Positions 4,234-4,745 of a stretch of DNA of 17,981 bases are shown in pieces. Position 1 is the stretch's first letter. The number at the start of each line of letters is the position of its first letter. The translations under genes and the position numbers were made by a program. A model generated the notes under the pieces. That model was not told the DNA's origin, did no database searches, and saw nothing but the letters and a program-made list of their open reading frames with translations. Source of the DNA: a virus (Duplodnaviria > Heunggongvirae > Uroviricota > Caudoviricetes); the IMG/VR virus record IMGVR_UViG_2850784384_000005; one strand, 5' to 3'.

Positions 4234-4509
4234 TTACGGTGGATTTTTACGGCGGCTTATCGGGTCAAAACCGAGCAAGGAGGCCATTTTTATCATCACT
4301 CTTTCAGCGTCGGATTTTGCGCTTAATGCGGGGTTTCTGCTCTCGCCGCCCTGACTGTTAACAATGCTGAACCCGCGCGCCGCAAGGTCTGCAACGGCTT
4401 TCCGGTAAATGGAGTAGTTGACGCAATACAGTTCCAGATTGCTCCAGTCGGCGGGGGTCAGGTCTCCCTGTTCCGCAAGCTGCCGCGATTTTTCCCGCCA
4501 CTGCTTCAC
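4234..4509 (-). pseudogene. terS: Terminase small subunit, P27 family, N-terminus frameshifted at a C6/G6 homopolymer (4555-4560)
   Basis: The 91-aa body carries LTPADWSNLELYCVNY and GFDPISRRK, typical of P27-family TerS. The family-like N-terminus (RFQDKPDPAYLDDIAV) continues upstream in frame but reaches a stop at 4567-4569, and the only upstream ATG (4567-4569 on the minus strand) is in a different frame. Removing one G from the G6 run joins them into about 114 aa. Confidence 0.7.
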
Positions 4510-4745
4510 GGCGATATCATCCAGGTAGGCGGGGTCGGGTTTGTCCTGAAAACGCCCCCCACCCCGTCATACAGCCTCATCAGCGATTGCGGAAACATTC
4601 CATAACCTCGCGGTCACGGTCGGTTAATCGCTTCGCTGTGATGCGTTCTGCGCGTCCTGACGCTTTATCTTTATGCCCTGTTTCCTGTGTCTTCCATGCG
4701 TCACGCTGCCTTATAAGTCCACGGATAAGGCGGTTTTGTTCCCGC

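Follow-up and report, generated by a model that had tools for sequence, protein, structure and literature searches.

The damaged 5' end of terS in a decaying capsid-forming PICI of Shigella flexneri: very probably a 97-bp deletion between short repeats and not a homopolymer slip

The locus described here raises the question of how a small-terminase gene (terS) came to lose its beginning. The window, i.e. the whole stretch of DNA that was analysed (17,981 nucleotides), carries this gene on the minus strand, where a 91-aa open reading frame (ORF; 4234-4509) opens at GTG 4509-4507 and closes at TAA 4236-4234. Upstream of it, the minus strand reads four G (4565-4562), one T (4561) and six G (4560-4555), the last corresponding to C6 on the plus strand. 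A TGA at 4569-4567 shares the frame of the 91-aa ORF and of TerS, an ATG at 4570-4568 lies in the second frame and a further ATG (4580-4578) in the third. The order on this strand is ...CGC TGA TGAGGCTGT ATG ACGGGGTGGGGGGCGTTTTCAGGACAAACCCGACCCCGCCTACCTGGATGATATCGCC GTG AAG CAG.... A sequence-only reading had interpreted this arrangement as a TerS N-terminus that was frameshifted within the homopolymer by an inactivating indel, by a sequencing error or by a slippage-prone on/off switch for packaging. Its elements (C6 at 4555-4560, the in-frame TGA at 4567-4569, the out-of-frame ATG and the 91-aa ORF) are borne out by the letters. Removal of one G indeed joins the ATG at 4570 to the TerS frame, although the expected length of about 114 aa did not hold: the fusion comprises 111 aa, because the premature TAA at 4236-4234 ends it. 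The homopolymer and ORF features of the window are not statistically remarkable. It holds five G/C runs of at least six bases, the C6 being one among them, and the chance expectation for a stop-free stretch of 20 codons is ~38%.

A megablast search with positions 4200-4800 of the window (601 bp) against 5,426 complete E. coli genomes matched 515 genomes and, among the 40 matches listed, every full-length match consisted of two pieces spanning ~693-700 bp for the 601-bp query. Two relatives with an annotated TerS, E. coli AR_0013 and O157:H7 WS4202, were aligned with the window. Both encode WP_000113645.1, a protein of 118 aa annotated as 'phage terminase small subunit P27 family', and the terS region of the window is ~98% identical to the island of O157:H7 strains. 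In a tblastn search, residues 8-118 of this protein aligned at positions 4533-4201 with one internal stop, and the terS remnant of the window is the homologue of these residues. Furthermore, 80 loci with relatives of TerS were fetched from IMG/VR. All 80 encode a TerS of 118 aa and contain the full intergenic region, and all share the N-terminus M[A/S]RPPK[A/V/T]PAYL(DD) and the C-terminus ETEEEDELD[R/H]L[E/A]. The native N-terminal sequence is MARPPKAPAYLDD..., and the ATG of the orthologues is located 15 codons upstream of the position of GTG 4509. In vB_KppS-Ant, Klebsiella P12620-1 and Pasteurella Pmp7, the TerS N-terminus is kept at the protein level with diverged DNA, and the Moraxella and Psychrobacter phages contain a longer basic arm (GRKPKP...). 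The position of this ATG confirms two points of the earlier view, namely damage at the 5' end of terS and the non-native status of the 91-aa ORF. We also considered a natural start of TerS at the GTG, which is ruled out by the ATG 15 codons upstream together with the N-terminus conserved in 80 of 80 relatives. The comparison with orthologues, which had been proposed as a check of the frameshift, went against it, as the relatives start at the upstream ATG and not at GTG 4509, and the homopolymer tract is non-coding in them.

In the alignment with AR_0013 and WS4202, the window displays a clean gap of 97/98 bp with CCCCGCC at its edges. This 7-bp direct repeat is present in two copies, 90 bp apart, in the intact relatives and in one copy in the window. 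BLAST matches place window positions 2271-4534 and 4528-9079 on positions 2506-4769 and 4860-9411 of the intact island L003, with an overlap of exactly 7 bases. The DNA that is absent from the window reads GGGCACCGAACGCCTCCTCAAATTTTTATGCACGGGAATTTTTTGAAAAATAATCTGACGAAAAATAAGC ATG GCA AGA CCA CCG AAA GCC CCC GCC and comprises ~70 bp of the hnh-terS intergenic DNA, the ATG and the first nine codons (MARPPKAPA). A sequence search revealed no relocated copy of this segment within the window. Codon 10 of terS is fused to upstream non-coding DNA, which is by chance open for 12 further codons. The junction is situated 21 nt downstream of the G4TG6 tract, and the tract and all DNA upstream of it are the same in the two aligned intact relatives. 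Taken together, the alignment indicates that the true lesion in the 5' end of terS is very probably a 97-bp deletion between the two 7-bp repeats, not a homopolymer slip, and an instance of ordinary gene decay (Table 1). Repeats of 7 bp at the edges of a deletion are a signature of replication slippage or microhomology-mediated deletion, and we infer that the deletion arose by a slipped-strand or microhomology-mediated mechanism. Such an event between the CCCCGCC copies would have removed 97 bp including the terS start, fused codon 10 to the upstream non-coding DNA and left the G4TG6 tract untouched.

Table 1 Features of the window that bear on the state of terS and of the island. Positions refer to the window; the last column gives the evidence or a remark.
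Feature	Position	Strand	Evidence or remark
Deletion junction	4528..4534	-	Sole remaining CCCCGCC copy; alignment, BLAST coordinate overlap of 7 bases
G4TG6 tract (C6 at 4555-4560 on plus strand)	4555..4565	-	Non-coding G-rich block, conserved in the cos-like intergenic region of hnh-orf60/terS; same sequence in the intact islands of E. coli
Kept upstream part of intergenic region	4535..4579	-	Holds TGA 4569-4567 and the chance ATGs 4570 and 4580
terS remnant	4198..4533	-	Without start codon and first 9 codons; tblastn, Pfam PF05119 Terminase_4
Residual 91-aa ORF	4234..4509	-	From internal GTG (Val16 of native protein) to premature stop; called as gene in S. flexneri
Second terS lesion, GAA to TAA (Glu107 to stop)	4234..4236	-	Alignment with relatives
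terL, 553 aa, apparently intact	2553..4214	-	tblastn 98.4% identity over 553 aa, no stop
Conserved 60-aa ORF between hnh and cos-like region	4580..4762	-	100% identical to WP_000174068.1; no Pfam match
HNH endonuclease of packaging module, 146 aa	4746..5186	-	Pfam PF01844; 99.3% identical to relative
Major capsid nonsense codon, Trp276 TGG to TGA	7969..7971	-	Capsid gene 7639-8796; tblastn
IS1 insertion, 768 bp, replication/accessory region	12582..13349		Gap in BLAST match to L004; Pfam DDE_Tnp_IS1; terminal inverted repeats
IS4 insertion, 1426 bp, regulatory region near integrase	14845..16270		Gaps in BLAST matches; Pfam Nterm_IS4 and DDE_Tnp_1; ends seen

The sequence RFQDKPDPAYLDDIAV, previously regarded as a family-like TerS N-terminus, is a composite. 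Only AYLDDIAV belongs to TerS (residues 9/10-16 of the 118-aa orthologues), whereas RFQDKPDP is translated non-coding DNA that, according to the alignment, was put beside codon 10 by the 97-bp deletion. RFQDKPDP faintly resembles the basic N-terminal arm of distant TerS proteins of the P27 family (RKPKP, RKPDP); this likeness is coincidental.

All three causes that had been put forward locate the lesion in the homopolymer, and the same G4TG6 tract is non-coding in intact islands that encode the full TerS. In the 80 intact loci, the tract is positioned 96-99 nt upstream of the ATG and reads G5TG5 in 43, G4TG6 in 32, G4TG7 in two and G3TG7, G4TG8 and G4TG5 in one locus each, with G6 as the commonest length among the closest intact relatives. 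Changes by one or two bases thus accompany intact genes, and the tract is therefore non-coding. The length variation of the G-rich block in L011-L090 could represent genuine polymorphism of a cos element or assembly noise. That a real one-base indel in G6/C6 split a continuous terS ORF of ~114 aa is next to impossible. ATG 4570 does enter the TerS frame when one G is removed, and the resulting 111-aa product exists in one assembly, but intact islands with the identical tract encode the complete 118-aa TerS from a start ~97 nt downstream of it, a range from G5 to G8 as found among intact islands would be intolerable for a coding tract, and an N-terminus of the MTGWGRFQDK type (MTGWGRFQDKPDP...) occurs in no relative. 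Moreover, the one-G 'repair' would restore neither end of the native protein nor the upstream region.

Homopolymers are error-prone, and a sequencing or assembly error in this record alone would be in line with a lone G5 variant that stems from one old run (SRR059811). This explanation is almost certainly wrong, however, as all ten deletion-bearing loci that were fetched regardless of tract length from separate assemblies (among them NCBI drafts, complete genomes, Logan assemblies and an ENA metagenome) read G6, the length that also prevails in the closest intact relatives, and tract length has no bearing on the ORF. One further deletion-bearing locus, which was looked up by its G5 product, has G5, and the fusion protein that is shorter by one G was found in a single contig of the old run. 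Both fusion products of a tract longer by one G (G7) were absent from a collection of 15 billion proteins, in which they could be missed if gene callers kept the internal GTG.

The same data bear on the proposal of a slippage-prone, phase-variable packaging switch, to which we assign a negligible probability. The likeness to homopolymer contingency loci is limited to a G-run close to the gene start, with a tract length that varies across intact islands. In contrast to such loci, the tract lies outside the native ORF (~97 nt from the ATG in intact islands) and does not set its reading frame. In the lineage with the lesion, the tract is essentially fixed at G6, and G5 was seen in the single old-run assembly only. 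Variation of tract length in the population, another check that had been proposed, was found from G5 to G8 among the intact loci, without harm; the lesion-bearing loci read had G6, apart from the one looked up by its G5 product. When the intergenic DNA of an intact island was scanned for promoters and terminators, nothing was detected on the terS strand, and no sigma-70-like promoter. The tract is part neither of an ORF nor of a promoter spacing, and its length did not vary among the ten deletion-bearing loci fetched regardless of it. Furthermore, TerS in the 'on' state would be without its native N-terminal arm and C-terminal tail, and the island without the predicted cos site and an intact capsid gene. 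The main value of the analysis is a correction: what seemed to be a homopolymer frameshift or phase switch is very probably a microhomology deletion that becomes visible only upon alignment with orthologues.

The deletion is accompanied by a second lesion in terS. A G to T change at 4236 turns Glu107 (GAA) into a TAA, by which the last 12 residues with the acidic tail ETEEEDELDRLE are lost. In relatives, the ETEEEDELDRLE tail overlaps the TTG start of terL (4214-4212), whereas translation in the window stops 20 nt before this TTG. Several loci (L091, L093 and L095-L097) contain the deletion and still have GAA at codon 107. The deletion is therefore older than the nonsense codon, which arose in a sub-lineage that includes the window.

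As the ATG and codons 1-9 are deleted, the gene of the window is a pseudogene or remnant of the P27 family. It retains the family profile and has neither the full length with the native start nor the basic N-terminal arm. The Pfam domain Terminase_4 spans residues 16-110 of intact TerS, and the residual ORF retains positions 3-90 of the 98-position domain without both extensions. The score for PF05119 is 83.7 bits for the intact orthologue and 81.2 bits for the 91-aa ORF, with a gathering cut-off of 24.7. A PDB sequence search with intact TerS returned no match even at E=10. Judging from these losses, TerS of the window would be non-functional. It may be speculated that translation from the internal GTG still yields the truncated protein (first 103 aa, later 91 aa) and that it is kept for a function such as interference with the terminase of incoming HK97-like phages. 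The nearly complete Terminase_4 domain, the operon position with intact genes upstream and downstream and the presence of the ORF in well over a thousand assemblies would fit this idea, but clonal descent in S. flexneri explains the wide occurrence, and the second truncating mutation in terS together with the nonsense codon in the capsid gene indicates relaxed selection. We thus consider a retained function very unlikely. Equally doubtful is the more specific idea that TerS truncated at both the 5' and the 3' end acts as a decoy subunit that poisons the terminase of HK97-like, HNH-dependent phages; if true, a defunct satellite would have been co-opted for defence.

The occurrence of the lesion was examined in assembly and genome collections. 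The exact 91-aa product occurs in at least 1000 contigs (1557 index blocks of the assembly collection), and all named sources are S. flexneri, with labels such as 'bacteriophage protein [Shigella flexneri]' and 'phage terminase, small subunit [Shigella flexneri 4343-70]'. For the whole 601-bp region, G6 included, five independent assemblies have the same sequence as the window. A 47-mer that spans the junction, and that does not seed on intact DNA with at most 27 matching bases on either side, had zero matches in the 5,426 complete E. coli genomes. Among GTDB species representatives it was detected in one genome, Shigella flexneri SFBU1023, and a 40-nt junction pattern had zero matches in IMG/VR. 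The terS lesion is real and fixed by lineage in S. flexneri. The 47-nt junction hence offers a clean lineage marker, present in S. flexneri and absent from 5,426 complete E. coli genomes, and the ORF labelled 'bacteriophage protein' or 'phage terminase, small subunit' in S. flexneri records is to be read as a truncated pseudogene. Over 7.6 kb (window positions 3-7640), the comparison with the SFBU1023 locus (L091, CP182556.1) has 65 mismatches and 30 gap openings; this indel load suggests uncorrected long-read errors in the assembly, and SFBU1023 is not the strain from which the window derives.

The non-coding DNA affected by the deletion was compared with the ends of HK97, the reference HNH-dependent cos phage, whose genome record is bounded by the cohesive ends (PMC9410871). 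The HK97 ends are ...GGGCAGGGGGGGGGA...TGACCGCCGCCAAA / GTTTGAATTTAACGCTAACCCGATTTTTTT..., followed by terS (the slash stands between the two ends); the record (NC_002167) ends with ...GGGCAGGGGGGGGGATCAAATCTTCAAAACCTTTGCCCCAAATGACCGCCGCCAAA and begins with GTTTGAATTTAACGCTAACCCGATTTTTTTAG..., terS starts at base 50, and the HNH gene ends ~320 bp before the right end. On the downstream side of the cut, HK97 TerS binds from +15 to +29, where a C/G step precedes an A/T tract; the protein contacts DNA through Arg7 in the N-terminal arm and Arg128 in a C-terminal helix (PMC11331095). In the cf-PICI, the intergenic region consists of a G-rich block (GGGGTGGGGGG), a CCGCC-type core ending in AAA (CACCGAACGCCTCCTCAAA) ~35-40 nt further on, and then TTTTTATGCACGGGAATTTTTTG. 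The same layout is present upstream of P27-family terS genes in Pasteurella Pmp7, Moraxella Mcat17, Psychrobacter Psymv2 (TGACCGCCTCCAAAGTTCATTTTTACG) and Acinetobacter AbIPP1 (TGACCGCCCCCTAAAGTACATTTTTACG). The HK97 ends can be aligned with three blocks of the regions in the cf-PICI, Pmp7, Mcat17, Psymv2 and AbIPP1, namely the G-rich block, the CCGCCNCC..AAA core and GGG-A-T6, an analogy that consists of a short non-coding alignment. As in HK97, a non-coding region separates hnh on its upstream side from terS-terL, and it has three blocks in common with the phage: the G-rich block, CCGCCNCC..AAA at the HK97 cut site, and a G/C triplet with a T-tract where HK97 TerS binds. Two differences have to be considered: HK97 TerS (161 aa) has no Pfam Terminase_4 match, unlike the P27-family TerS, and the HK97 cos site is experimentally defined, whereas its position in the cf-PICI follows from the alignment. 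Two cf-PICI preprints (10.1101/2022.09.08.507074 among them) do not state a cos position.

On the basis of this alignment, the G4TG6 tract would correspond to the G-rich block that is conserved in the upstream part of the cos region, and the deleted stretch probably held both the site of the cos cut (about ...GCCTCCTCAAA/TTTTT...) and the site bound by TerS (GCACGGGAATTTTTT). The predicted cohesive ends of the cf-PICI are about ...GCCTCCTCAAA / TTTTTATGCACGG, and the candidate TerS-binding fragment of the intact island is GCACGGGAATTTTTTG. The segments missing from TerS are its two termini, and the DNA contacts of HK97 TerS are made by the N-terminal arm and a helix in the C-terminal region. 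A by-product of the analysis is hence a testable prediction of the cos location in this satellite family.

As a separate observation, a layout of three parts is common to HK97 and to the P27-family systems of E. coli, Pasteurella, Moraxella, Psychrobacter and Acinetobacter: a G-rich block, a core of the form (T)GACCGCCNCC..AAA, which in HK97 lies at the cut site, and a T-tract. The regions compared were positions 4790-4911 of the intact island L003, the ends of HK97 NC_002167, and L103, L104, L105 and L110. This suggests a possible common cos grammar, although HK97 TerS has no Terminase_4 match. With such a grammar, the sequence of a cf-PICI would suffice to predict its cos site, which is a real but modest point. 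The record of the Acinetobacter phage AbIPP1 opens at the terS ATG and conveys no information on physical ends. The vB_KppS-Ant record ends with ...TTTTCAGGAC and restarts 22 nt before the ATG, so that, by comparison with E. coli, ~75 bp with the predicted cut at their centre are absent. This gap is suggestive, but could be an artefact of assembly or trimming. The vB_KppS-Ant element itself (L005, LR881103.1, Escherichia phage, 16,548 bp, described as 'induced prophage') looks like a cf-PICI-like element that was sequenced from particles. Directly after terL, it contains a 2.3-kb gene annotated as 'tail length tape measure protein', which one would not expect in a satellite without tail genes.

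The window in all likelihood carries a decaying cf-PICI of the EcCIEDL933 kind that adjoins phoQ in Shigella flexneri. The island is bordered by phoQ (1-1461) at one side and ends at the other in its own integrase gene, which starts at 17004 (17004-17981, plus strand) and is cut by the window end; in E. coli relatives, roxA is found beyond the integrase. The backbone of a PICI is present, with an integrase, an HTH regulator, a primase (10503-12251) and, as in the E. coli relatives, a location between phoQ and the roxA side. The island encodes, in this order, primase, regulators, capsid, prohead protease, portal, head closure, connector, HNH, the 60-aa ORF, terS and terL. Tail genes were not detected in the island, either by tblastn of every annotated L003 protein onto the window or in the annotation of the relatives. 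Proteobacterial cf-PICIs, with the prototype EcCIEDL933, contain their own capsid and packaging genes in the same content and order (10.1101/2022.09.08.507074), and the tail-less order capsid-protease-portal-connectors-hnh-terS-terL is kept in the window with two of these genes broken. The element thus resembles cf-PICIs in its int, regulators, primase and capsid-to-terL order and in its size of ~15 kb without the IS elements, where PICIs measure ~10-17 kb. It differs from the prototype by the 5' deletion and the nonsense codon in terS, the nonsense codon in the capsid gene, which splits it into ORFs of 291 aa and 109 aa, and the IS1 and IS4 insertions. terL, portal, protease, connectors and HNH are intact, which makes the decay recent or partial, and the primase gene is open as well.

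With no native TerS and with the predicted loss of cos, the island would therefore be neither cut nor packaged. Formation or filling of capsids by this island is unlikely, and we infer that it is non-packageable, with the capsid nonsense codon and the two IS insertions pointing in the same direction. A failure of helper-driven transfer is predicted, and the S. flexneri copy of the cf-PICI is best treated as a non-mobilisable remnant. Several independent inactivating lesions, two IS elements and fixation in S. flexneri lineages are shared with the known formation of pseudogenes in Shigella by IS expansion, nonsense mutations and small deletions, of which the element is a typical instance without notable difference. 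The terS remnant is an ordinary pseudogene in an element of known kind.

Three further observations concern other parts of the island. Positions 9080-9935 of the window had no match to the E. coli relatives used, and what can be recognised there is limited to a PerC-like fragment (9463-9624) and the SSB gene up to codon 24; the PerC/SSB module is thus replaced or degraded in the window. At positions 1972-2270, ~170-300 bp between phoQ and the last ORF of the island are missing from the two E. coli relatives compared, which may reflect variation at the island end or attachment site. Finally, the IS4 insertion is flanked by a duplicated ...ATTTCGGGG target.
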